A stretch of 64,000 nucleotides of DNA from Saccostrea echinata (taxonomy: Eukaryota). The notes under the pieces are model-generated. The model did no database searches. It saw nothing but the letters and a program-made list of their open reading frames with translations, and was not told where the DNA came from. The DNA lies in NCBI RefSeq assembly GCF_033153115.1, contig NW_026889793.1, forward strand, positions 186,001-250,000. Direction: 5' to 3'. Shown here in pieces: positions 6,779-64,000 of the stretch. Each line of letters starts with the position of its first letter. The first letter of the stretch is position 1. The position numbers and the translations under genes are program-made.

Positions 6779-7000
6779 GGCCATTATTTACACACTGAAT
6801 TATCGACGGATTTTCCCGTTATATACCGATCATGACAAGGAGCACACGGCGGGTGTGACCGTTCGGCAGGAGATACTCGCTCCTCCGTGGCACCTAATCC
6901 CTTCTCTGATGTTTTTAGATGTCTTTGTTTGCTCTGCTCCCGATTTGTATTGTTTTAATGAACTTTGAGCTTGAACAATGTTCGTTATCTCCACATTTCA
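6779..7000 (+). mobile_element. 3'-UTR-only copy of the Penelope-like element
   Basis: Colinear with the reverse complement of 34330-34555, from GGCCATTATTTACACACTGAATT to GTTCGTTATCTCCACATTTCA. Confidence 0.9.
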
Positions 7001-9546: not shown

Positions 9547-10112
9547 TGCCACGTCTGCTTCATATTTGGACGTTCCAGTGACTATAGACGATAAAGACCA
9601 ACTAACAAATAAATTGTCTGACAAACGGGATGATTTCAGCTTTTCTATCGTCAACTTTCCTTATTTATGAAGTAATATTTCGTTATCATTTGCATGTAAT
9701 GATTACGTCTACCAACTTATTCGATACCCAAGAGCACAATTAATCTTTAAATCGAGGCAGGCTACTGACAGATACATGTAAGTTGATGTTACAGGGGTTT
9801 CAACATCCTCATTTAAAATCAGCATTTCGTAAATTCAATGGTCGTATCAATGCCCTATCAACAAATATAACCTATGATTGAGTCAATTGTTTGACCCTTG
9901 TTTTTATACTAAATTCGACAACGGAATGTCCCGTTTACCTGACTTATTCATAGGGCTCACGGCGGGTGTGACGTGTCAGCAGGGGATGCTTACTCTTTTT
10001 AGGCAACTGATCCGACCTCGGCAATTTTCGGGGGTCCTTTTTTTGCCCTGTTAACAGAATTGTATTGATTGTGGATATTTTAAAATCATCACTGTTCGAT
10101 ATCTTCACCTTT
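9547..10112 (+). mobile_element. Decayed Penelope-like fragment nested in the Ginger-like element
   Basis: Translates TSASYLDV..LTNKLSDKRDDFSFSIVNFPYL, then carries the 3'-UTR motif CACGGCGGGTGTGAC. Confidence 0.9.
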
Positions 10113-12007
10113 TTTTTCATTAGGAAATATATGGTATGTCGTTCGCACGAGATATTACGTCATTTTCGATACTTTCTACCTCATTTGCATGACTTTTTAT
10201 GTCATTCAAAATATACCTATATATTAGATTGCATAACTTTCCGTATTTATTTCCGAAAACTTATATCATTCCTTTTTTCCCTTCATTTTCTAAGAATGTT
10301 GATCCTACTCAAAGTATGCTGATTACTTTGGGAGACATGTTTACCAAAGAAAAAGCCAGAACATCCCGCTTGTCTGTTATTTAGCTATGAATGTCTATAA
10401 TCAGTCAAATATCCAAATATGACACAAATGGAAGACATTCATAAAGGGAGATTACGTTAAGAGTTATAACCAATAACAGGCATTTTGCAATTTTCAATAT
10501 GTGCTGAGAACACAATAGGCTTAAAAGATAGAAATATGCATGTAAATGTAATGCTATTTTATTTGCGCGTTCGTCCAGTGTTGGTCAAAAAGGGCATGAA
10601 GAAGAATATTAAACATTGAGGTTCAAACCTTGGCATCAATCACCTGTTATAAATTTTGTGTCATGCACTCTGTTAGAGAAGGGGTCATTTTTCAACGGGG
10701 GTAAATTTTTAAAGGACGTACACATAAATAAAAAGACCCCTAGGGCTCTTTTTCTACAAAAAATCAATTTTTTTCTAAGGGGGGGGGAGTCATTTTTTGT
10801 CGTTCAAAAATGACCCCCGGTCATTATCCTATGGGGGTCATTATTCGTCTTTACACCGGCATAAGAAGTTAAATACACAGATCTCCCGAATAAGGCCTTA
10901 AATAAGGAAGTCCCGTGTCACAATAGGCGTGAGCACGAAAAAAGAACCTTCACTGCTCAATGGTCCTTAGCTTCGAGTATAGGTCTGTACCGGCATACGG
11001 TTACAATCTATCAATCAATTTCATCATAACAAAGACCACACCCTTTTTAAATAAAATGGAAAAAAAAAACAAGAATAGGGCCCAAAAAGGGGTTGAAGGT
11101 GTTACATAGGAATGTATAAGGAAAAAAGATATTTAGCAATCCCTCCTAAGACAAACGACATAAAAAGAATTTTTGTGAAAACTTCTTGACATGTACGTAG
11201 ATTCTGTATTGATTGTGCTTTGGTCATCAGAGGTAGGGTAAGGCCACTTTAGAGGATAAATTTTTACTTGGGGATAAAAAGGGAAAAACCTTCCAAATTA
11301 TTTTTCTCAACACAAGTAGAACCATGCTTAGTAGAATTAATATACAAGCATAGATAATGAAGATTAAAATTTGTTGGAGACAATGTAGAATTAGGCAAGA
11401 TAATCTTTCCAAGAACCACAATGCATGTACAATAATGAATTCGCTAACATTATAAGTTGTGTTGATTTTTTTTTAAAGTTATGGACACTATAACTGGTAT
11501 TTGTCTGAAATTGGGGATTAAATTTAGATACAGGGGAACATTCCTCTATTTAAAAGCAAGGCCGTTTAAGTCATATTGGTTTTAGAGTATCCATATGTTT
11601 TGTGGATTCAGGAATCCCTTATAATGAATACAAAATGGCCACAAAATGGATATTAATTTTTCACATTTAAAAAAAAGAGGAGAAAAAAAAAATTCTGAAG
11701 AATTCTGTTCTATCTTTCTTGATACAGTATCCTGGAATTTGTACACATTTTTTATAACATCAAGTATTTTCTCGGGGTAAAGTTTTCTTGGTTTGAGGGA
11801 AAAAATATTGGTTCATTGGGATATGATTTCATGGTTGAAAAAATGAATATTACACTGAAGTTTGAAATAGCTTATTCAAACATTTCTTGAATACATGGGT
11901 CTCTCCATGCCACGGAAATAAAGAAAAGATAAACACAAAGAAAATAAGTGGTTTTCACAGTTTGGGATTTATTCATTGATTTATTTATTGAACAAAACAA
12001 AACAAAA

Positions 12008-28635: not shown

Positions 28636-30640
28636 AACTTAAGTCTCCCTATTTTTCAAATACGTATTGCTTTTGATTTAAAAAAAAAAAAAAGAGCAGA
28701 TATAGAATTCAAGCTCATGGTTGAGATCTGCAATAAAAATATTCTACATGAATACCAAATTTTTGAAAAGTCCCTTTTATTTATTCAAACCAGACAGATA
28801 AATGTCTTAATCGTCATTTTTCAGCAGATCACATTTTTCTTCATTTTCTAAATATAATATTCCCTTTTAAACGGACAAGGAAAACCAAAGACAATAAAAG
28901 AATCATTAATCCTAGAAATGTGGGATCATTTGAATTGATTGACTCTTATCAGTTATGGAGGAGGATTAATTCTCAGTCTATTGAACTAGTTTTGCATATG
29001 ATCCATATAATATAATGGTTTCAAAAGGACAATATTACGTATTCACTTTTTTATATTTACGAGGAAGTCAACTTCAGCGACTATTCGGGTACTTTGAAAC
29101 TTTATCGCGCATAATTTAGTAAAGCTATTTAAGAAAAAGGTTAACATCTTCTAAGATAACCATTTTATCTGTTCTTGCTGAAATATTCCAATGCGTAATT
29201 GCAAATGAAAATTAGCATATAATTATACCATTAAGCATATTTTGGACAAAGCGTAAAAATGGGCTACTCCATATTATATTCAAAACATAACCTAAATACC
29301 AGAATATAAATGTAAATGTTGCTATCGAAATTCTAAACAAAATTATTTCTGCTTAGGAGACAAGTTTGGTTAGATAAAAGTTCGGCGATTTGTGATCTAA
29401 ATGTTTTTAACTTTGTTGTTTCAAAACTTACCACATTAAGATATTTCTTGGTAAAAATTCGTATCAGAATTGATAAATTTTGATAAATTGATAAATTTTA
29501 TCAACAAAATAAACGAGTTTAAATCATAAAACAAATATTTCTGCTTTTACAGTATTATATGTGGTCTTAGAAAAGTAATGAAGAATAAATGCCATTAATA
29601 TAAACCTGACAGTGAGCTTTACATTGAGAGGAATAAATGTAAAACATCATTTCGATCAAAATATTGGATGTTTTTATTTGCTTGAAGTATGAATATGACT
29701 GGAAAAATTGACACTTTTGATCTTTACCTTTAAGTACCTTCTTTCTTATTTGTCCTTCTAACAGACATGAAAAGATAATCCACATAATAAAAGTAAATGG
29801 TGGGTATTTTCGTTTTAGCAACCAAGTCTTTAAGCACCTCTAGAGCGATAAATATTGATTGAAATATATTATTGCTATTGTCCTTAAAAAAGTTAATATC
29901 AAACATATCTTGCGGTGTTTTCAGATGTATCCAACTGATTTAAATTTATTTCCTGGTCTCAACAACTTCCTCAATTCCTATCCTTGAGAAAAAAATAATA
30001 AAATATCAAACGACACAGTATTGCTAAATGTTCTTGATATTCTGACAAATTACCAAAAGATCCCCTCCCCTCCGAAAAAAGACATAAGTAATGCACTCCT
30101 TGCTTTCCTGTAGGAAGTTGCTTGAAACAAACGATCAAGTGTATTCCGAGGAAAATACTCTTGATATGCTACAGAAATGATCCAATACAATTTTTTTTCA
30201 ATCCAATCATATTATATAACTCGGAGATATATAGATTATCATATAAAAGCATATAAAAGCAATGCACCAGTATTATGTCTGTGGTGGTACCTTTTACAAC
30301 ATTGAAATTTTTGCATATATTTTTGACAATTTGTATCCTTAAAGCTCTTACATGAATGAGGAATCTTAAAGAGATCTTGGTTTGAGCAAAATAATTTGCA
30401 CTGAATGAAGATTCTTTCACTTAAAGAATTAAATGATTTTTTGTTTGGTTTTCACAAGAAATAATGATGAAAGTATTCAGTGGATATGAATATATAAAAT
30501 GATCAAGTTGTAGCTTAGTACTTCTTGAGAAGATATATAAAACAATTTTTCTATAAATCGCGATGTAAAAGGTTCGATACTTGATGGGACCTCATTATAC
30601 TAGATTAAGTAAGATCATGAACCATTCTCTGAACATGTAA

Positions 30641-30775
30641 AATGTGAAGATAACGAACAGTGATCAATCTTTTAAATTCACTAGACATAATCTATCGTAA
30701 ACAGGGCAAAAAATACAGACCCTGGAATCGCCAGAGGAGGGATCAGGTGCCTAGGAGGAGTAAGCGTCCCCTTTG
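30641..30775 (-). mobile_element. Penelope-like 3'-terminal fragment
   Basis: GAAGATAACGAACAGT...GGGATCAGGTGCCTAGGAGGAGTAAGCGTCCCCT. Confidence 0.85.
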
Positions 30776-34329: not shown

Positions 34330-36780
34330 TGTGAAATATATGGAGATAACGAACAGTATTTAAGCTCAAAAGTCCATTAATCAATACAAAATAGGAGCAG
34401 AGCAAACACGGACCTCCAAACATCAGAGGTGGGATCAGGTGCCATGGAGGAGTGAGCATCCCCTGCCGACCGGTCACACCCGCCGTGTGCTCCTTGTCAT
34501 GATCGGGAAATAACGGAAAAATCCGTCGACAATTCAGTGTGTAAATAATGGCCTAACAATTAGTGTGAAAAACGTCAGTCAGCATTTGACTCAATGATAA
34601 ATTGTATTTGCTGACAAGGTCATTGTATCGACCATAGAACTTACGAAATGATGACTTTAAACGAGACAGCTGATATTCTTGTTTTATCAACTTATTTGTC
34701 AATAATTTACCTCGTTTTAGAAATTGTACATACGTAGAGCATGCTCTTGCGTATCGAATCAACTGAGAGATATATACCCCATATGCAGGTGATGAAGGTA
34801 TATTGCTGCATAAGTAAGGGAAGTTGACGATTGAAAAGTTAAAGTCATCACGTTTATCATAAAGCTTGGTTGTTAGATCACCATTAACGTCTTTCTCAAG
34901 TAAAATATCCAAATATGAAACAGATGTGTCAGACTCTGTGGTATCTTTTATCTCAAGTTCACAAGGATATATCGTATCGACATAAGAATGGAAATAGCCA
35001 TTGTTAATTGACAATACGTCATCGATATATCTAAATGTCGAGTTGAAGGCCACAGCAAGTGTTTTCTTCTTTTCACGTACAAGATTTTGGACAAATTCTG
35101 CTTCATATGAATACAAAAAAAGGTCTGCTAATAACGGGGCGCAATTGGTACCCATAGAAATTCCAATAGATTGTTGGAAGACCTGGTCTCCAAAAACCAC
35201 ATAGATATTGTCAATCAGAAACTCAAGCATCTTTTTAATGTCAACTTCAGAGTACTTGTGTGAACAATCAGAATGTTTTTTAACAAAATAATTTTGCAAA
35301 TGACCAATGACAAGGTAAGTATATTTACGAGTTCCATTTTTATTGAAAAAGCAGCTGTCAATGATATCAAAAAGCCTGGACTTTAATTTATCGTGGGGAA
35401 TGGTTGTGTACAAAGTTGAAAAGTCGTAAGTTTTTAAGCTGTTGATTTTGGTAAAATCTTGTGATTTCAAATTTTCCAAAAGTTCCTTGGAATTTTTAAG
35501 TATCCACATCTGATTTACACCACTTCTCGAATATATTGTTGCACAGTACTCTTGAAGTTTCTCCTTCACCACTGTTAATATCTTAGTGAGGAGTAAAGAT
35601 AGAGGCTTGGTTGAACATTTACTGGAACCCGCTATGTATCTTTCTTTGTAAGGATTTTTATGAAGTTTCGGAATCCAATATAAATATGGTAATTCAAATT
35701 CATTTTGGTTGTTTGGAATATTAAAAATATTCAAAACTGACATATGATTTTGAAGAATTTCTTCCTTAGAAAGGGAACTATGAGTATAAGTTGGATTACC
35801 ACTTGTAGAATTAAATCCAAGTTCCTCTAAAATACATTTAATATAATGAGCCTTACAAACAAAGACAATGTTGTTACCTGCTTTGTCAGCAGGGACCAGT
35901 ACGTACTGATCATGTAATCTATCTAATTCTTTTTTCACTTCTGGATTATTGAATACAGAAGGATAGATGGTTTTCATATTGCCTCTCAATCTTTTAATGC
36001 GTGATTTTAACATACATCTGATACATTTAATCCATTCTGACAAAGTGTCAAGGTCTTCTTTTTCATGTCTGGTCCATCGCCTGGCGTAGTCCTCTACAGA
36101 ATCCATAATATTTATGAAATTCCGACGCCAGTTGAAGGATCTGGGTTCCCTAAATTTAGGACCTTTTAAAATTAGTGATCTAAGGTCCTCATTATTAACT
36201 ATATTTACGTCACCAGTAATAACGTGTCCAGCAGGACTATAGTTATAGGGCGAAGAAGAACATGAACACGATGGAGGATTATGCTTCAGATATTCGATAT
36301 CCAGGCCCTGTAAAGTTTTCTTGTAATTAAAAAGTTTGGAAGCAATAGTCGATGTATATTTGTAGGAAATACAAGGTGGAGTCTTTAACTTGACATATGG
36401 TGGAATACAAGACTGGACCCTTTTGTGATTAAGAATATTACTTATATTAACCGCGTCAATTCCTTTGTTGGCATATTGAAGTTTAAGGAAAAAACGGATT
36501 GTTTTAACTGCATTTTCTTCAGTAAAACGCGGGGGTTTAAAAAGCCTATGATTGGCAATATCCATAATTACAGATCCGAGCCTATATTCTGGTGTCGAGG
36601 AATCAAAAAATGGACTTTCCTTGACCTTTTCAAGAAGACTATTTAAAAGTTTCAAAGGGACAGGGTAAAGTTTGGTGCGAATATGATGTAAACCTAACTG
36701 TTGATTTACGTAAGGTAGTAATGAATCAAAAGAGACATCGTGTATTAAAGGTTTATTGTAAGACCGATGCCCATGACTAC
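34330..36780 (-). mobile_element. Penelope-like retroelement (probably Naiad clade), 5'-truncated and recent
   Basis: Uninterrupted RT frame plus a ~225-bp 3' UTR shared with many local copies. There is no C-terminal GIY-YIG domain. The frame stays open upstream of 36655 to SHGHR at ~36778. Confidence 0.85.
34553..36655 (-). CDS. Penelope-like reverse transcriptase (N-terminally incomplete)
   Basis: Motifs KGPKFREP, VPADKAGNN, YWIPKLHK, DFSTLYTTIPH, QSIGISMGTNCAPLLADLFL, catalytic YIDD, and thumb LYDKRDDFNF. The TTG start is arbitrary because the frame continues ~41 codons upstream. Confidence 0.92.
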   Translation of the reverse strand: MKLLNSLLEKVKESPFFDSSTPEYRLGSVIMDIANHRLFKPPRFTEENAVKTIRFFLKLQYANKGIDAVNISNILNHKRVQSCIPPYVKLKTPPCISYKYTSTIASKLFNYKKTLQGLDIEYLKHNPPSCSCSSSPYNYSPAGHVITGDVNIVNNEDLRSLILKGPKFREPRSFNWRRNFINIMDSVEDYARRWTRHEKEDLDTLSEWIKCIRCMLKSRIKRLRGNMKTIYPSVFNNPEVKKELDRLHDQYVLVPADKAGNNIVFVCKAHYIKCILEELGFNSTSGNPTYTHSSLSKEEILQNHMSVLNIFNIPNNQNEFELPYLYWIPKLHKNPYKERYIAGSSKCSTKPLSLLLTKILTVVKEKLQEYCATIYSRSGVNQMWILKNSKELLENLKSQDFTKINSLKTYDFSTLYTTIPHDKLKSRLFDIIDSCFFNKNGTRKYTYLVIGHLQNYFVKKHSDCSHKYSEVDIKKMLEFLIDNIYVVFGDQVFQQSIGISMGTNCAPLLADLFLYSYEAEFVQNLVREKKKTLAVAFNSTFRYIDDVLSINNGYFHSYVDTIYPCELEIKDTTESDTSVSYLDILLEKDVNGDLTTKLYDKRDDFNFSIVNFPYLCSNIPSSPAYGVYISQLIRYARACSTYVQFLKRGKLLTNKLIKQEYQLSRLKSSFRKFYGRYNDLVSKYNLSLSQMLTDVFHTNC

Positions 36781-37037: not shown

Positions 37038-37614
37038 TTTGATGGCATTATTAAATTTAGATACTCCACCAATATACGTATTCATGATTGAAACATTTTG
37101 TTGTGATTCAATTTATTAATCTGCAGAACGTACATCATCCTCCACCTTATTTCTTGTGAAATTGTTAAAATTTGGATACATAAATTTCATTAATAATTAT
37201 TGAATTAGGAAAAAATTAAAAATTTAAAATACATGTAATCAAATCAAAGGAAATTTAGGTTTCGTAAATTCCTTCAAAGTATTTTCAGTTGTAGACATTA
37301 GTAATTTTTTTTATTCTCTTCATAAAATTTATAATAAAGTAACTACATAATGTATATAAATAACAACAATACACATCAAAGTTTGGGTATCATTACTGTA
37401 TTTACCTTTGAATGCAAGGTACATGTATATTTGCATGATAAAAGTGTAAAACGTTTTGAATCGTGAAAGTTAAAAATTGATAGACGACATCTAGAAAAAC
37501 TTATGTAAATACATGTATATATAAACATGTGCTTAAAGTGCAGTATTTTTGTGGCTGTCACTTCTCAGATCAGAGAAGTTAAATTTGAATGTTCAACGTT
37601 GTTTACAATAGGTT

Positions 37615-37790
37615 TTTGCCCGATCATGACAAAAAGCACATGGCGGGTGTGACCCGTCGACAGGGGTTGCTTGCTCCTCCATGACACCTGATCCCACCTC
37701 TGATGTTTTAAGAGGTCTGTATTTGCTCTGTTACAAATTTGTATTGTTTCAATGGACTTCTGAGCTTGATTACTGTTCGTTATCTTCGTA
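37615..37790 (+). mobile_element. 3'-UTR-only copy of the Penelope-like element
   Basis: CCCGATCATGACAAAAAGCACATGGCGGGTGTGACCCGTCGACAGGGG...GTTCGTTATCTTC. Confidence 0.9.
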
Positions 37791-41505: not shown

Positions 41506-43097
41506 TTGAACCAATGAGATTTGTCTCAAGAAGAGAGGAATTAACATGTTCTTCTGGAATTATCTTAAATAGATTGTACGAATCTTGCAATTGTGTAAAG
41601 TCATCGCCCAGAGACAACCATTAGGCTTAAAACAAATTCCAAAATTTAATAGTAAATAAAAAATAGCATAAAATACGTGATAATTTCTGTTTTTCAATTT
41701 TTCTCATCCTTAAGCACATTCTATTTTTTCTTTACCGTGTTCACTATTTTAGCGATAATTGTCGATCTTCGGGTTACCCGGTCCATTTTAAGATATTTAC
41801 ATAATGACGGAATCACTCAGAAATTAATTTTCTCTGCTTTTCCTTAAGACATTTCGCATTTAATCAATTATTTGTAACACTATTAAGCGTGTAGGAGAAC
41901 CAGCCAATCTTTATATATGGCTTACTGCGCGAGGTATAAATGACCTCTGGCTATGTTTACAAATACACAACACATGGGGCACATCATCGATATCATTATC
42001 GCTTTAGTCGTCAATCAGATTTGATGACTGAGAACTTCCTGGGTTAAGCCAGTCTTCTGTTATAATAACAAGTGTCCCCATTGTCATCTCGAGGTGTTTA
42101 ACTAGGTGCGGATAATGGTTTCAATCGATCAGAAGCGCCATCTAGCGGTTAATATCTGATATTATCTCTCGACCCAATTTATTGAGATACTGAAACTACA
42201 GACCTGTTGAAGCGACACTGAACGGTCAAACGTTCCCGAACTAGATGTTGGACAGGGCATTCATACCTACTTTTCTTTTCTGACATATGTCAATATTTCT
42301 TTGGGGGGGGGGGAGCAAGGCTTTGGAGGGGGAGAGGTAAAACTAGTTTCTTAAATATGAATCAAGGTTGAACAAATAAAACATCTCTATCCTTAAATAG
42401 AACATTGAAGACAAATTGATCAGGAGAGAAACGAGGGACAGTCTCTTTTAGTTTTATATGTGAAAGTGGAGACGGGCAGAGTTGGAGAGACCGAGATAAG
42501 TTGCCATACATGTACATGTTTGTCATATATATATGTAATAACAGAATCAAAGAAAAGATATTAAGAGACCAGCCAACTTGCCCCTTTTCCCCAAAATTAA
42601 GGTTTTTCGTTTGCTTTTTCAAAGCTTGATTTCTTTCTTTTGAATAAGCTTTTTATGCCCCTGACATGAAATTGCAAGGGCACAAAGTGTTACCCTTAAT
42701 TCCATCCGTCAATCCGTCATAATTATTTTCAGGAATTCTTATGCCGTGCTTGTATATAACAGGGTAGTTATTGGTACTTGTATGTTTTTTAAATTAATGA
42801 AAAAATTCTGACAAGCAATAAAAAAAAGATAAAATAAATAAATAAATCCGTCAAAATCCTGGATTTTGCCAGTGCTCGACCTAACAACATCAAAAAATGG
42901 AGGTGGGGGATGGGGGGGGGGAGCAGCATCTAACGGAAAATTAACTAGAGCAAAGTACTGTATTCAGAAAAAGTGTGGGCCCCCCTGCCCCCCCCCCCCC
43001 CCACCCAGCGTTCTACGGGCCTGTTTTATGTTAACCCATTTTAACGAAAGAACTTGCCCTGAGACTTTGAAAATTTCTGATAATTCATTGCTTTCTA

Positions 43098-43965
43098 CGG
43101 AAGCCCGTTGAGGCCATTTCAGAGAAAGAAAATATTTTTATTGCGTTTAAACGCAATAATTATTGTGTTAAAACGCAATTATTATAATTATATAGTTAAA
43201 CGCAAAACATTGCGTTAAATCGCAATAACATTGCGTTTAAAGGCAAAACATTGCGTTTAATCGCAATGTATATTGCGTTTAAACGCAAAACACTTTGCCT
43301 TTAATCGCAAAAGATTTGCGTTTAAACGCAAAAATTTTGCGATTAATCGCAATACTTGAATCATATGAGATCAAAATCAAAATCAAATGAAAACAGATTG
43401 ATCGATGTGTACTACCAAATTGACCAGTACTATTAATACCACTGAAACGTTTTTAAGTTTTTAATTAGCTGTGATACGTAAGCAATTGATCAAAGGCTTC
43501 ATTTAAAGTGTTGGGTTCTAATACGTTTAAGTCATTCTGGTTGTTAGGATACCATTATTTTACTACAAATCTCCAAAACTGGACATTTTGCAAAAAAGTA
43601 ACAGTGTCGGATCCTAGTAATTATAAGCTTTGGCTAATTGATGTCTGATTTTAAACTACAGTATCATTGCGTTTATATGCAAAACAAATCCTTAAAAGAA
43701 GGGATTATTGCGTTTAAACGCAACATAATTGCGCTTAAACGCAAAAATATTATTGCGTTTAAACGCAAAATGTTTAATCGCATAATTATTGCTTTTAAAC
43801 GCAAAAGATTGTGTTTAATCGCAATCGTTTGCGATTAAACGCAAAGTGTTTTGCGTTTAAACGCAATAGACACTGCGATTAAACGCAATGTTTTGCGTCT
43901 TTATTATTGCGTTTAAACGCAATAAAAAATATTTCTTCCTCTGAACTGGCCTCAATGGGCTTCCG
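43098..43965. mobile_element. Foldback MITE with long TIRs, TA TSD and arrays of the palindrome TTGCGTTTAAACGCAA
   Basis: TA-CGGAAGCCCGTTGAGGCCATTTCAGAG... and ...CTCTGAACTGGCCTCAATGGGCTTCCG-TA. About 10 palindrome units lie in the left arm and about 12 in the right. Confidence 0.9.
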
Positions 43966-44618
43966 TAATGCCCTGGATTTTTATTTTGTTGCTGTGCTTG
44001 TAGAAAATAATTAAACTGCATTTTGATGTGTATATTAATGACTTACATATCACGTTCGAATTTTATATCGATTGACCAATTTCCACGAAAGTTGCTGACA
44101 TTAGAATTTAAAAATTTGTAATCATTCAATTTTATCCGAACATTTTTTTGTTTTGCTGTGCTTATAGACAACGAGCTGAGTTTTGTTCTGTTTCCTTACA
44201 GTTCCAGTTCGAGTTTCATGAGTGACCCATTTTCACATTTTCTGAGTTGCCAACCCGAAAAATTCGTTATCTACCACTGGTATATAGCTCTTTAATCTGT
44301 AAATTTCTCCTTACGAAATCTTTCTAGCACGGGTATTGGAATGTGCACCCTTGACATATATGAAATAGACTGAGACACAAATGTAGAATATTATTACATA
44401 ATGTAAGATGATAGTACAATGATCAAATTATTGTCTGTTTAATAGACGTGACATGCGCATGAAGCGTGAAATTGATTGTTGTATGACATCACATTTTATG
44501 ATAACTACGAAAAAATTTCAGGTGTCAGTATTTAAATATTAAATAAATTTATAAAGAAAACTTTGATGCCCGAAAAAAAAAAACTGGTACCTCTTATCTC
44601 ATGACAACTGAATAAATA

Positions 44619-45398: not shown

Positions 45399-46685
45399 GG
45401 ATGTTACTTTGATCTGGTTAGTGATCAGAGGGTTTATGAACCTTAAGCATGAAAAAATAGTCGAATAAATTTTACTCTTTCTTATTAAAAAAAAAAAACA
45501 CGAAGAAACAGTGATTTGCACAAATTATAAGGAGTTCATACTCTTGGTTACGATTTTCTGACAGCGAAAGAATGTCATTTGGTAAAGTTCGGATAATTTC
45601 ATCACGGACGTATACTTTATAGTATTTATTTACTTGGATACTGAAGTAGCATGTAAGAGAAAATACATTGTAGACTGACGTATAGAAAACAATCGATACC
45701 TTTACTTAGCCTTGAATTTCACAAAGAATCGCAGGTTTCAAGAAGACGTAAGTTTGACCGATAGTCCATCATTTTTCTTGTCAATCTGTCATTGCGCGCA
45801 TGCACAAGAAGATGCATTTACTAACTGCCCTGCACGTTTGGCGCTTTTCTCTCGACCTTCACAACATGCTTGCACGTCCATTCAAAAACAATTTTGCAAG
45901 AAGATTATTGTGTGGGTTGGGAAAAATCGGTTTGACCGCAATGGATATCACAGCTGTTCGGCGGATCTTTCATCCAAAGGCAAACTTTGAACTTTTACTT
46001 AGAGAATGGCCAATGACTTCTTGTATAGTGTACCTGGTCACCTTGTTGTTTTCAACAACGTAAGGTTTTTAAAGACGCTTTTTTTCCAAATTAAAAAAAG
46101 AATGCATAATAATAATAATCAGATTCTTTTATATAAATACATAAATCTATAAGAATTGGACGCTAATGTTGCAGAGTAAAATTTTTTGTTGAATAAAACT
46201 TGAATTCTCCAAATCAATTGGACTAAAAAAAAATAAAAATCCTCTGTGATATATCATATATGTGCATTTTCTTGTTTTGCTTGGCACTCACATAAATAGT
46301 TTGATTTTATTTTGTAAATTTGAATTAGTTGTGTCTATATTTCTCATTTTGTTTTTAAATTTGGCCCAAATTATTGTCCACAATTTTATTTCTTCAAAAG
46401 AATAGGATTTCTAAAAAATATAATATGTGTTACATGAATCTAAAATATGAGAAGGGGGCACTAAAAAGTGCATACGTGTAACAGAAATTTTTCTCAAAAT
46501 AAGGAGTCTAAAAATGGATAATAATGTGCAAGAATTTAACGATTTAATGAAGTAATCAAGCTACAGATCTTGAAATCACTGAATTTTTTTCTGCATAAAT
46601 AAATATATTTTTATAAACGTACAAAATTAGAACAATTGTAGAATTTGTTAATACAACCTTAATCCTGCTATATAACAAACACATT

Positions 46686-48005
46686 TATTATATGATTGAA
46701 TAATTCCCCTCTTTCTGATTGGCTGAGATCCAACAATGTTAGAAAAATACTACATTATATTGACCTGCACGTGATCTTCCAGGTCAATATAAGGAATTAT
46801 TTATTCTACATTGGACTAAAAATAGATAGGGAAATTCCAAATTAATGCAAATAGTTTTGGAAAGTTATTTCACTTGCATATGACATCCACTCATATGAAC
46901 ATAAAATTAAGGCACATAGATTCTTGGGTGAGGGGTCGGGGGGGGGGGGTGCAGGATTCCTGCCCCTCTCCCCACCTTTTGAGAATGTTAAGTTTTAATT
47001 TAAATTTTAAGGATAAAAAATTTCATTGTAAGCCCCCCTCCCCTCGAAAAGTTTATGTACCTTTACATCCCACCAAATAAAATTTTGATTTGGGAGAATT
47101 CTATTCCTTTTGGGGGGGGGGGGGGCTAGTCAAAGATTTGTTTTCAGGTACGTTGTCAATTTTTTTTTCTTTATATGCCCCCTTTTTCAAAATTAATCCT
47201 ATATATGTGCCTGACATTTATTTTTCTACATTGCACCTAAACTAGAATTAAAAATTTCAAAATAATACAACTGTTTTTTTTTTTAACTCTGTTTCTCTGA
47301 TATTCGGCTAGTACTTCAGTAGATGTGAACAAGTAAGATGGCACGGATTGCTTAATGAATGTGTGTCATTTAATCATTGAATCATATAATAAAACAATTA
47401 TTGCTGTTTTTTCGGTCAATACGATGATTTAGCCACCTTCGAAGTACAATATTCACCTCGCCCTTCGGGCTCGGTGAATATTGTACTCCTCAGGTGTCTA
47501 AATCATCGTATTGACCTCAAAAACCAGCAATAATTGTATATTATTATATGATTGAATAATTTCCCTCTTTCTGATTGGCTGAGATCCAACAATGTTAGAA
47601 AAATACTACGTTATATTGACCTACACGTGACCTTCCAGGTCAATATAAGGAATTATTGCAGGTCAATATAATGAATCACGTGACCTTCCAGGTCAATATA
47701 AGGAATTATTGCAGGTCAATATAATGAATTATTCCTGTTCCATTTTTTCATGTTACAATGTGTTCTTGTTGAAATTTCTCGTTAAAACTTTCAATTAAAG
47801 CAAAAAAAAAAACAACAGTCTTGTAGGAGTTTGCTATCATTTAATCATATAATAAAACAGTTATTGCTGTTTTTTGAGGTCAATACGATGATTTAGACAC
47901 CTTCGAAGTACAATATTCACCTCGCCCTTCGGGCTCGGTGAATATTGTACTCCTCAGGTGTCTAAATCATCGTATTGACCTCAAAAACCAGCAATAATTG
48001 TATAA
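46686..48005. mobile_element. Head-to-tail dimer of a non-autonomous element ending in a ~150-nt hairpin
   Basis: The head TTATATGATTGAATAATT...CTGATTGGCTGAGATCC occurs at 46688 and 47544. The hairpin centred on GCCCTTCGGGC occurs at ~47390-47540 and ~47855-48005. Confidence 0.8.
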
Positions 48006-49629
48006 TACTTTTAATTTTCTCGGAGATTCTCCATGCAATATACATTTGAAATACAGCTGCGACGAATTCGAATGAAAAAAAGAGATGGAACAAACCTGAA
48101 AGGGTCGGGTTATAGGACATTATAAATAAAACTCAAGGGAAATTGGTTTTTCCATTTAAGACGAATTCCCATTAACCCCTATGTACTTTTGTAGTTCCAA
48201 TTATAGCATAATAAAATGATTGTAATCAGGGCCTACTCGTTGTTTTAAACGACACGATCATTTAAAAGATAATGGATGATCTGAAAGACACAAAAGTATG
48301 GAGACGTTTTTCACCACACGTAGATATATATTGAAGTGAGAAGTGCAAAAACTATGACGAGGGAAAAAAAAGTCGCATCGGCTGAACGAAACAACATTTA
48401 GATAGCGCGATGTACATATGTACATTATATAGTGTAAAGCTTCTTGTCTCCGTGAAATTGCAAATGCAAAAGAAGCACATGAAATGATATTAGAAATTTA
48501 ACTGATTTTGCATATAGCAGCATTTTGTTTGTCAAATGTTTTGTCCACCCCAGCCCCACGCCCACTAGTACTTTTTCAAAAACATATACACGTACGTGCC
48601 TGGGCATATGCAATCGGAATACAATGACAAGCAAAAAAGGGCATCATACTACATGGATATTATTCAGGGGACACAATGTTAATTATCATGGATTGTCTAT
48701 TTTTAGCATACATGAATATTGCCCAAATAAATCGAGGGGGAGGGAAGGGACACGAAATTTCCCTCCCCCACAGTTCTGCAGTAAGTAATTTATTTAGCTG
48801 ATATTTATAATTTTCAAGTCAGAGTGAATTAACTTCAGATCTTGGGAAATATTGACCTTGTAATGTTATTTTCCTTTATAGGAATGGCGACAATTACCTA
48901 TCTGTCCAGGCTGTTTGAGATGATTATAATCATCTTACTCGGTTTATTATGTAATTTTTCTCTTCGTAACTAGCAATATGACATTCTCACGACAGTTGTC
49001 AAGAAAGCTTGGCCAAATGTGACTTCTACCTGGTGGTCATATGGTGATGAAAATGCTTATAGTGCAATTCACACGATAAACAGTTATACGGTCAATACAC
49101 CGATATATTTAAGATCTAAAGCAATGCTGCTTGTTTGTCTCCGTGTTAAATGTAGATATTCACGTAAACTGTTTTTTTTTTTTCGATATTATTGAATATC
49201 TGGTGACATATAGACCATTCATTCCCTGACTGCTTTAGGCAAGTAAGAAACAATTTCAGTATATATAGGGGAGAGGGGGCACTAACGAACGGAAATTCTT
49301 TGATAGGCACAAAAAAGTCATCAGTCGTTAATATAGAAGGTCTTCTTCCATTGGGTTTGTATAGTTTATGCTGACAAAATACCCCCCCCCCCCGCTTTTC
49401 CCTCTTCCAAACGGCCAATGCTTGTGCTGAAATAACTGATACATGTAATTATTATGTTATTGGGTTGTTGGGTATTGTTTGAACTTATTTTTTCTCTGTT
49501 CATGGTCTGGGCATGGTCTTCGTACGTTCATTTTGAAATGAAGCGCAATCATACTGAGCTTCCCTCTTTCCAATTAAACGTTATAGCAATTTTGATTGCA
49601 ATTCGTCCAGTGATTTCAAAATGAGATAA

Positions 49630-56399: not shown

Positions 56400-57610
56400 A
56401 AGCGACATGCAGTACTGTACAACAACATATTAAGTGGTTTTAATCAAATGTGGATACTCAAGAACTCTGAGGAACTTTTAGAAAGTTTGAAATCGCAAAA
56501 TTCTACCAAAATCAATAACATCAACTTTACGACTTTTCAACACTTTATACAATCATTCCCCTCGAAAAATTAAAGTCCAGGCTTTTTGACATCACAGACA
56601 ACTGCTTTTTCAATAAAGAAAAAAAAAACAAGCTCGTAGATTTACATACCTTTTCACTGGTCTTTCGCAAAATTACACTTTGTTTTAAAACATTCTAATC
56701 GTACACAAATGCTCCGAAAATGATATTAAAAAGATGTTTGAGCTTCTAATTGACAATATCTAGATATCTATAGGAGATCAAGTCTTCCAACAAACTGTTG
56801 GAAATTCCATGAGTGCAAATGTGTCCCGTTATAACAGACTATTTTGAATTCATATGAAGCAGAATTTATTCAAAAACTTTAACATGAAAAGAAAAAGTCT
56901 CTTGCTTTGGCTTGAATTCGACATTTAGATATATCGACGACGTTTTCTCAATCAACAATATTCATTTTCATTCCTACGTTGATTCGATATATCCCTTTGA
57001 ACTCGAATTAAAAGACACCACAGAGTCTTACACATTTGCTTCATATTTTGATGTTTTACTAGAAAAAGACATAAATGGCAACCCAAAAACAAAACTTTAT
57101 GATATACATGATGACTTTAATTTTTCTATCGTCAACTTCTCTTATTTATGTAGTAATATACCACGGAGTTTATGTCTCCCAGTTGATTCAGTACGCAAGA
57201 GCATGCTCTACCTATGAACGATTTTTAAAACGATGGAAGCTATTGACAAATAAGTTGATGATACAAGGATATCAACCGTCTTGTTTAAAGTCAACATTTT
57301 GGCAAATTCTATGGTCGATACAATTACCTTTTTAGCAAATACAATCTTTCGTTAAGACGAATGTTGACTGACATAATACATATAAATTGGTAGGCCATTA
57401 TACATGTGTATTCACGCTGAATTGTCTACAGATTTTTCTGTTCGCCCGATCTTGGCAGGGGGCACGCGGAGGACGTGAAGGAAATTCTGACTCCGTAGCA
57501 CCTGATACTACATCTGTTATTTTTACAGGTCCGGTTTGCTCTGCTCCCGAGTTTTACTGTTCCAATGGACTTTTAAGCTTGATTGTTGTTCATTTTCTTC
57601 ATATTTCATG
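56400..57610 (+). mobile_element. Decayed Penelope-like copy (RT core to 3' end)
   Basis: NSTFRYIDDVFSINN...KLYDIHDDFNFSIVNF and GVYVSQLIQYARACSTY in shifted frames, then the 3' UTR. Confidence 0.92.
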
Positions 57611-62290: not shown

Positions 62291-62955
62291 TTGAGCTATC
62301 ATACAAAACCGTTAATAAACACAATTGATAGACTTGACCATCCCTGTTTACTCACAGGAAGGCGACTTTTAAATACTACCAATGCCGTCAGTATACGCAT
62401 TTTTTTCTGTTTATTGCTTATTTGAACTATAGTGATGTGATTGGAAAGTTTTCTTCTTATTAAAGATGACTTTCCTTTTTTGTTCTAACCAAAATGCACT
62501 TAGATATGAATTACATCGGAAAACGTTATATATTAATTTGCCTTTTTTTGAATATTTCTATCATTTCACTACTTTCCGCATTTGAAGGCATAGTCCCCAG
62601 TCCTGATTTCATTATATTTTACTCCTTTATGAATTTGATACTTTTGCATATATATTATGTATTTAGTGAGATAATGGCACATATTTTGTGCTATCATTTT
62701 GTTCTGATAGAGAGAATTCATTCTCATCAAATAACGACTACATCTATTTCTTATATGTATATACAAATAGATATAACTTACCTTCTTGCAAGTTTTATAT
62801 GTTTTAACTAAATTCAATTTGAAATTTAATAGAATAGTGGATAATTGTGATATTTATTCTGTATTTTTACAAGTTTACAGAATTTTGAGACTAATTTTAA
62901 TTGAAAATATAGAGGCATGCTAAAAAGAACTTTTTTCATATATAATAATATACAT

Positions 62956-63187
62956 ATCACCAAAATACTGAAATAACTACTTGTGTAAAAATCTAACTTG
63001 CTAACATAACATGATTCTTTGGTGAATTAGACGTCGTTAATATCCATCACCAAAATACTGAAATAACTACTTGTGTAAAAATCTAATTTGCTAACATAAC
63101 ATGATTGTTTGGTGAATTAGACGTCGTTAATATCATTACTAAAATACTGAAATAGCCACTTGTGTAAAAATCTAACTTGCTAAATAA
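62956..63187. repeat. ~90-bp tandem repeat, ~2.6 copies
   Basis: ATCACCAAAATACTGAAATAACTACTTGTGTAAAAATCTAA... at 62956, 63046 and ~63133. Confidence 0.95.
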
Positions 63188-64000
63188 CTAAGATATCTGT
63201 CACATAAACATGTTAAGTGATCGTTTGTACAAAATTAAGAGATGGTGAAATCTTAATGTCAACTTTTCATATTTATAAATAAACATAGTCTTTCAATTGA
63301 AAAGTAAATTATTTCGATTTTTTATTGACTATTGCACGCTAACATTTCTGTTAAAGTAATTTCGCATGTGATTAACATTTTAAAAAATATCAACGTATTT
63401 AATTTGACATATATATTTGGAGATATGCATAACACAAGAATTCTGGTTAATAAAGATATCTTGCATAACACGAGTAAACTGGTTATTAACGATAACATAA
63501 ATGTTTATCATCAAAAGACTCGAATAAGTATCGGTATCACGGTCGAACAAATAGACAAATTGCTCAATGACCATCTTTTGTGTTGCAAAAACATGTTCCT
63601 TGATTTATTTTTATAAACTTCTCTTACATTTCTATGTATTGCGAAAATTGACAACATCGCAAAACTTCGCTTTAATTCACTTAGTGTTGCCTTTCTGCGT
63701 AAGATTTAAGGTTTTAAGTTTCGTAATTAGCAGATTCTCCGTGGTTTTGGCTAAGAAAAAGTACATTTATACCGATAGTATTTTTCTCTTCTAAAAACTT
63801 ACAGACCGCATCACTTTAATACTGCTTTCATGTATACATCAAATAAAGGCAAAGGAAGTCCCATCCATTATTTTTTTACGTAAGAAAAATAGGACACGAC
63901 AACTTATGTATATACTTTGGCTAAAGAAAACATACATTAATGTGTCTAGTACTTTCCATTTACAATACAAACGGAAATTAAGTTAGAGACATTTTACATT

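Follow-up and report, generated by a model that had tools for sequence, protein, structure and literature searches.

Minimal hammerhead ribozymes in the pseudo-LTRs of Penelope-like elements (PLEs) are described, in passages of two reports, as dimeric through a palindromic loop (PMC4209133; PMC6765202). Part of a study on another PLE reports that hammerhead cleavage is dispensable for insertion there (PMC11167929). The Naiads are PLEs for which a CxC motif, a DKA motif and a C-terminal reverse transcriptase (RT) are diagnostic (PMC8557442, section 6). Craig et al. reported no canonical hammerhead in them in the parts of that work consulted, and a term search of its main text returned only SECIS elements and partial hammerhead cores as 3′ structures (PMC8557442). 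Section 15 of the same paper treats the handling of PLE RNA and the building of tandem pseudo-LTRs as an open question (PMC8557442).

The window analyzed here is a stretch of 64,000 nt from Saccostrea echinata (RefSeq assembly GCF_033153115.1, contig NW_026889793.1, positions 186,001 to 250,000). A sequence-only reading of it had proposed, for a PLE family without hammerheads, that the 3′ end encodes a structured RNA with a function. Covariation across families agrees with this proposal, and the family is Naiad. The features are collected in Table 1.

Table 1. Features of the Naiad copy, its 3′ UTR motif and related sequences (window positions, or locus positions for the second motif)
Feature	Position	Strand	Remarks
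Remaining ORF, 755 aa (end of EN region, linker, RT)	34553..36780	-	TAG stop 34553-34555
3′ UTR	34332..34552	-	same sequence makes the pseudo-LTR upstream of full-length copies
P0 5′ strand, CACGG	34483..34487	-	pairs with 34407-34411
P0 3′ strand, CCGUG	34407..34411	-	
P1 5′ strand, CGGGUG	34477..34482	-	pairs with 34436-34441; nearly invariant
P1 3′ strand, CACCUG	34436..34441	-	
PAL1, 10-nt self-complementary stretch	34467..34476	-	
Conserved unpaired CAG	34463..34465	-	C and A invariant; G in 9/10 A4 rows
Pseudoknot 5′ strand, GGGAU	34458..34462	-	pairs with 34431-34435
Pseudoknot 3′ strand, AUCCC	34431..34435	-	
Conserved GCUYAC	34452..34457	-	G, C, U, A, C invariant, 10/10 rows
PAL2, 6-nt self-complementary stretch	34442..34447	-	abuts P1 3′ strand; 6-8 nt elsewhere; 11/12 representatives
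P4 hairpin	34412..34430	-	variable length and loop
Older decayed 3′-end copy, 87%	6779..6993	+	the 6870 variant of the sequence-only reading
Decayed copy, older subfamily	30639..30772	-	PAL2 is CCUAGG
Older decayed 3′-end copy, 86%	37612..37785	+	
Further 3′-end copies	near 9952-10113, 21811, 28479, 31193, 33705, 57413-57604, 60318, 61231		
Second motif	L081:2430-2530, L086:1195-1290, L094:2805-2890, L096:2600-2700		
Second motif	L101:1100-1195, L144:1625-1710, L069:2295-2390, L082, L142, L145, L147		

The Host Element

The element occupies 34332..36780 of the minus strand (2,449 nt) and is a young Naiad copy, 5′-truncated at 36780 inside the region of the expected N-terminal GIY-YIG endonuclease and about 98–99% identical to longer genomic copies. 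The CxC, DKA and C-terminal RT motifs are all present in the translation of its ORF, for which a Pfam search gave no match at E ≤ 0.1. Compared by eye, its 3′ UTR agrees almost letter for letter with the Naiad_Sglo consensus as given in an excerpt of the published set. A sharp 3′ end, at 34332 in the window, is common to all 30 loci and carries no poly(A), and the last 27 nt of the family, which is young and abundant, occur in 3,964 exact copies. The Naiad habit of 5′-truncated copies, with a pseudo-LTR preceding full-length ones, was also found. In front of each of the 69 body 5′ ends examined stands a stretch of 3′ end, in head-to-tail order and at least a few bases long; the lengths of these stretches are distributed as in ordinary truncations. 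Of 64 distinct full-length 5′ ends, 34 have a whole further copy of the motif upstream. The structured block lies 66 nt behind the stop codon of the 755-aa frame, on the minus strand. About ten local copies had been counted in the sequence-only reading; BLAST within the window finds 11 others of the 3′ end, 10 of them touching the block.

Several other repeats were seen. Local tandem and inverted repeats at 43096-43967, 46685-48006 and 62946-63188 of the window are unrelated to the motif. A tandem array with a unit of about 68 nt (G000:C4:12096562-12097747) holds the motif core of the older subfamily. About 14 of 90 young copies (L184-L273) are interrupted by an internal gap, beyond which the element sequence resumes upstream; such gaps could be template jumps or later deletions. 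The 5′ motif of Naiad starts is shared by another repeat of higher copy number (22 of 30 loci; G000, L314-L343), whose upstream context differs and which is not linked to the family's 3′ end.

Conservation Within the Genome

The block had been described as the best-preserved part of the local copies. Pooled over the copies in the window, its identity is 0.80, slightly above the 0.76–0.77 of three flanks, but it is the best region in only three of the seven copies that cover it fully. In 54 older copies elsewhere in the genome, bystanders that exclude the 30 loci chosen by an in-block pattern, the block stands at 0.79–0.80 and the flanks at 0.73–0.77 (paired p 0.02–0.05). The genome-wide conservation excess of the block is small, 3–5 points. 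Folding energy was not above chance: the z-score of the window block is 0.21, and one of six sense-strand copies falls below a z of −2. No separate family of mussel-type or 12-nt-spacer variants turned up in searches of the same genome, so the copies within it show decay only; because dead copies decay neutrally, a between-family test was required. Support for the structure comes from covariation across families, and not from local copies or folding energy.

The families compared were reached with an RT query, from which the best 80 of 182 metagenome loci and 10 loci on genome contigs were taken. An alignment of 10 rows (A4) was used for pair counts and 12 representatives for the anatomy, covering about eight lineages; the palindromes had already been noticed by eye when rows and representatives were selected, on the criteria of intact anchors and diverse families. 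With a covariance model, 62 matches (E up to 1) were obtained in 93 loci, and the majority are decayed copies from a single mussel-type family.

A Corrected Fold

The block at 34407-34487 of the minus strand is very probably a real, conserved RNA structure of the Naiad 3′ UTR, although its fold had to be corrected. The motif is 81 nt long and forms a three-way junction of P0, P1 and P4 with no spare bases, the single linker of which pairs with the P1 loop. This 5-bp helix, between the strand that follows CAG and the strand that follows P1, crosses P1 and is therefore a pseudoknot. Eight unpaired bases are invariant or nearly so, and the invariant CAG and GCUYAC lie on either side of the pseudoknot strand. 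GCUYAC is a candidate catalytic or tertiary core.

In A4 the pseudoknot is 94% paired and all five of its pairs change on both sides; RNAalifold picks the helix unprompted. P1 is nearly invariant, with 95% of cells paired, one position that is GU, AU or GC and no two-sided change, and for this reason its support consists of complementarity and that one position. P0 has 4–14 bp of differing sequence in 10 of the 12 representatives, and P0 and P4 each pair with differing sequences in most of them; both were misaligned by MAFFT, so that neither has a tool-based pair count. Over the alignment two-sided changes are found in 10 of 16 pairs, a level reached by 0 of 500 shuffles, and slid controls are 29–45% paired; the shuffle control ignores relatedness, and the counts are not to be read as p-values.

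These results revise the four helices of the sequence-only reading. All four can be drawn on the minus strand, and the outer stem, P1 and the 3′ hairpin hold across related families. The remaining helix, AGGGG/CUCCU, is unsupported: it is 76% paired, none of its five pairs covaries, it falls below its own shuffles, and its strand forms the pseudoknot instead. The pseudoknot and the two palindromes, which are the strongest signals, had been missed. Of the pairing-preserving variants cited earlier, AGGAG/CTCCT near 6870 exists, but in that decayed copy one side alone has changed, which is not covariation; CTCTGG/CCAGGG near 30641 exists too and comes from an older subfamily, in which the 3′ hairpin is longer.

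It is most improbable that the block has no functional structure and is a GC-rich repeat pairing by chance or through coding. The z-score and the slight conservation excess among local copies would suit such a repeat. The two-sided changes, the shuffles and the slid controls largely refute it, as does the finding that the best local alignments of L062, L064 and L107 with the window UTR are confined to the motif. Coding constraint was rejected, since the block lies behind the stop codon at a varying distance.

Palindromes and Probable Pairing Between Two RNA Copies

The CAG/GCUYAC core is flanked by two palindromes whose sequence changes while their self-complementarity stays, a trait of dimerization signals. 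PAL1 is complementary in 100% of cells, that is, in every row of A4 and including the central adjacent bases, and the innermost adjacent pair covaries (AU 3, CG 3, GC 2, UA 2). Its central tetramer is strictly self-complementary in 12 of 12 representatives, which carry six different tetramers; the figure for background 10-mers is 5.5%. PAL2 ends exactly at the P1 3′ strand in 11 of 12. Because adjacent bases cannot pair within one strand, pairing between two RNA copies is likely, and on these grounds the motif would probably form an RNA dimer. Predicted PAL1 homoduplexes have energies of −7 to −17 kcal/mol, and the alternative hairpin is stable for one of the 12 representatives. Wobble pairs comprise nine G-U and two A-C, an excess that weakly favors sense RNA over cDNA or double-stranded DNA.

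The palindromes might instead be incidental or act at the DNA level, with PAL1 a 3-bp hairpin in a monomeric structure that serves RNA stability, a nuclease block or translation control. PAL1 can indeed form 3 bp and a tetraloop, and RNAalifold draws that hairpin. Moreover, nested cofolding of nine motifs clearly favored the native palindromes in only two, weakly in three and not in four, where “clearly” means at most 1 of 30 shuffles as low and the model can draw neither the pseudoknot nor both palindromes together. A hairpin, however, needs no self-complementary loop, yet the six tetramers are self-complementary with no exception; PAL2 is too short for a hairpin, and G-U pairs in the palindromes would be senseless for double-stranded DNA. 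A monomer is considered unlikely.

Distribution Among Naiads

By eye, the same anatomy is seen in at least 10 of 54 published Naiad families, two from Clytia, five from bivalves and three from hemichordates, with names taken from the order of the file in part of the supplement (PMC8557442). In these ten consensus sequences, also by eye, the pseudoknot has 49 of 50 pairs, PAL1 is present in 10 of 10, and PAL2 is even-length in nine and odd in one; the published excerpt adds three PAL2 centers, GUAC, GGCC and UCGA. The motif is absent by eye from the Naiad_Mcor and Naiad-3_Chem consensus sequences in the same excerpt. A quick RT tree places the 14 motif-bearing rows together in a branch of 20 rows (SH-aLRT 95); the other six rows lack the motif, two of them possibly cut by contig ends. 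Sister lineages without the motif still transpose. Its distance from the stop codon varies (60–214 nt to CAG), as does its distance from the 3′ end, judged by eye. No RT relative was found in viral contigs, and three viral pattern matches were dismissed as chance, as they had neither pseudoknot nor element context.

Comparison With Described RNAs

Rfam 15, where the sequence-only reading had proposed to look, holds no relevant match for the block; the twister-like sister motif described below also has no Rfam match, so that the blank is weak evidence. No description of the motif was found in the literature searched, a scope that stops short of subscription journals and of Repbase and Dfam notes. 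Judged on the features that define each class in sequence, the motif is not a hammerhead, an HDV-like ribozyme, a twister or a twister-sister.

The minimal hammerheads of PLE pseudo-LTRs, as passages of the two reports present them, resemble the motif in position, element class and palindromic dimer logic (PMC4209133; PMC6765202). In contrast, the motif has another topology, with two palindromes and a pseudoknot, and no CUGANGA/GAAA core; as had been seen by eye, no CUGANGA..GAAA core, in any permutation, is present on either strand of the 2,449-nt element. With no Rfam match either, a hammerhead was rejected.

A loose resemblance to HDV-like ribozymes had also been noted, together with the view that the fit is not canonical, which holds. 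The order of P1 5′, P2 5′, a pyrimidine-rich stretch, P1 3′, G and P2 3′ is shared with the ribozymes in the part of the report consulted, and so may be a G-U pair in P1 (10.1101/2022.09.22.508989). The G-U at the start of P1 occurs in 6 of 10 rows, but the G that comes after it can pair with the C before it. The HDV P4 and the catalytic C of J4/2 are absent, a lone G separating the P1 3′ and P2 3′ strands in 11 of 12 representatives. The analogue of P3 is broken in several families, its middle pair being C-A in 2 of 10 rows and, by eye, in five families of the published excerpt. A loose self-made HDV descriptor, run with no positive control, found no match on the motif in seven families. In the part of the report consulted, HDV-like ribozymes of retroelements sit in 5′ UTRs (10.1101/2022.09.22.508989); the present motif is in the 3′ UTR.

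Twister was rejected because its U-A site beside P1, conserved L1 and L4 loops and T1 and T2 pseudoknots, as given in part of one report, are absent and Rfam has no match (PMC5408937). There is a likeness to twister-sister-like RNAs, as part of another report describes them: GCUYA resembles G7-C8-U9-C10-A11 and CAG resembles (C)38-A39-G40, in the same order (PMC11620745). GCUYA is found in 10 of 10 rows, with C at the C^A site in three of the 10; a change of the site from C to U retains partial activity in twister-sister-like RNAs, according to the same part (PMC11620745). The opposing GCNAG strand, which in those RNAs makes an internal loop between two helices, was not recovered: NNCAG and GCUYA share one strand, with NNCAG 5 nt upstream, and position 37 varies. 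The two strands of the motif lack the required joining helix, the partner strand of an alternative mapping is tied up in P1, and positions 12, 36 and 37 differ.

Ty1 PAL1 and PAL2 likewise drive pairing of a retroelement RNA next to a pseudoknot, as part of one report has it, but in an LTR element, at the 5′ end and in dependence on Gag (PMC6844567). In the present motif, the palindromes are in the 3′ UTR of an element with no Gag, and each would pair with itself.

A Possible Dimer-Dependent Ribozyme

From its sequence and position the block could quite possibly be a dimer-dependent self-cleaving RNA that stands in for the hammerhead of other PLEs, and this is the reading preferred here. The dimeric hammerheads found at this place in other PLEs, the twin-palindrome motif of other Naiads described below and the resemblance of the invariant bases to the twister-sister-like core speak for it. 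Each palindrome would pair with its counterpart in a second copy, PAL1 to PAL1 and PAL2 to PAL2, and act as a hinge at one end of the P1 loop. The segment made up of CAG, the pseudoknot strand and GCUYAC would thereby be swapped onto the P1/P4 body of the partner, completing the core in trans, and the product would be a two-fold strand-swapped dimer, cutting itself only when paired. Either another transcript or the upstream pseudo-LTR copy of the same transcript would supply the partner. The latter could serve because a motif lies upstream in 34 of 64 5′ ends and the arrangement is head to tail in 69 of 69. Both duplexes would lie between closed loops, which is topologically demanding, and refolding or help from a protein may be needed. 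We would guess at two candidate cleavage sites: 34454/34453, the C^A within GCUYAC, and 34482/34481, a C^G where P1 starts. The 5′ ends of 153 genomic copies show no single-base pile-up, with a maximum of three per position and none at C^A. Unstranded RNA-seq shows no sharp ends, but it is mostly passive read-through, 75% of the reads running into unrelated sequence. Both tests, of copy ends and of RNA ends, are weak. The further step, that this would be an undescribed class of self-cleaving ribozyme, an obligate strand-swapped dimer in which two palindromic hinges hand over the catalytic strand, is a tentative and rather doubtful one.

A dimer might also act with no catalysis. The fold would then be a dimerization and protein-loading signal, bringing two RNA templates together and serving as a binding site for the Naiad RT/EN protein. 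It would set initiation 75 nt downstream, and an RT that reaches the 5′ end of one template could continue at the 3′ end of the other, a jump that would build the pseudo-LTR. The exact 3′ end with no poly(A) and the universal pseudo-LTR, head to tail with the 3′ end at 69 of 69 body 5′ ends, are consistent with this. In addition, 5′ truncations are about three times denser over CAG-PAL1-P1-P0 (34463-34487; 16 seen, 5.7 expected), as if the RT stalls at the PAL1 duplex. The excess is present in both copy sets, with a scan p of 0.013–0.035 for an interval chosen after inspection of the data, duplicates having been removed and six lengths hand-corrected for indels. Parts of two reports offer precedents, Ty1 PAL sequences being required for RNA dimers and mobility (PMC6844567) and a Poseidon PLE protein being predicted to be a dimer (PMC11167929). 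On the other side, the distances of the motif from the stop codon and from the 3′ end vary, sister lineages transpose without it, and pseudo-LTRs would equally result from a circular template or from reading through tandem arrays. An inverted partner was found beside 0 of 90 ordinary copies and 1 of 69 full-length ends, which counts against the loading signal and leaves a dimer as the cause of inverted insertions unsupported. A loading signal of this kind is considered somewhat unlikely.

A Second Motif in Other Naiads

At the same place in the 3′ UTR, other Naiad lineages carry twin palindromes with UAA, GAGG and a conserved hairpin (loci in Table 1). This second motif looks like a twister fold in which the first helix is replaced by palindromes, with a tentative match to individual twister residues. 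It is also present in three mussel consensus sequences in the part of the supplement consulted (PMC8557442). The hairpin of the second motif was looked for over 134–700 nt behind the RT of 12 loci that have the present motif and was missing from all of them. The two motifs are alike in having a G-rich strand, two palindromes and a C-rich strand that closes a similar helix inside an outer stem. The present motif lacks the UAA, the GAGG and the conserved hairpin loop of the second, and it alone has the insert of CAG, pseudoknot and GCUYAC between the palindromes.

Other 3′ UTR elements were seen in passing. In L090 and L125, paired palindromes 3 nt apart lie inside an outer stem and are possibly variants of the second motif. 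SECIS_1 matches of about 29 bits (cut-off 35) lie right behind the RT stop at L080:1998-2065, L081:2146-2208 and L096:2318-2379, and the same hairpin is present in about ten related loci; these are probably further selenoprotein Naiads. Naiad-1, -2 and -3_Chem and one part-10 family have, in the part of the supplement consulted, a short conserved element just behind the stop (PMC8557442). This cnidarian element lies upstream of the place of the present motif.

Significance

The defined pseudoknot, core bases and covarying palindromes make the ribozyme and dimer ideas testable in vitro. Even without cleavage, the motif would be a natural two-hinge RNA dimer in an element of the non-LTR type, of which no description was found in the literature searched. 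If the ribozyme reading is true, bivalve genomes would hold thousands of copies of the class, and it would extend to the Naiads of hydrozoans and hemichordates. In that case three different RNA cores, hammerhead, twister and the present motif, would have been taken up by Penelope-like elements for one dimer-gated job.
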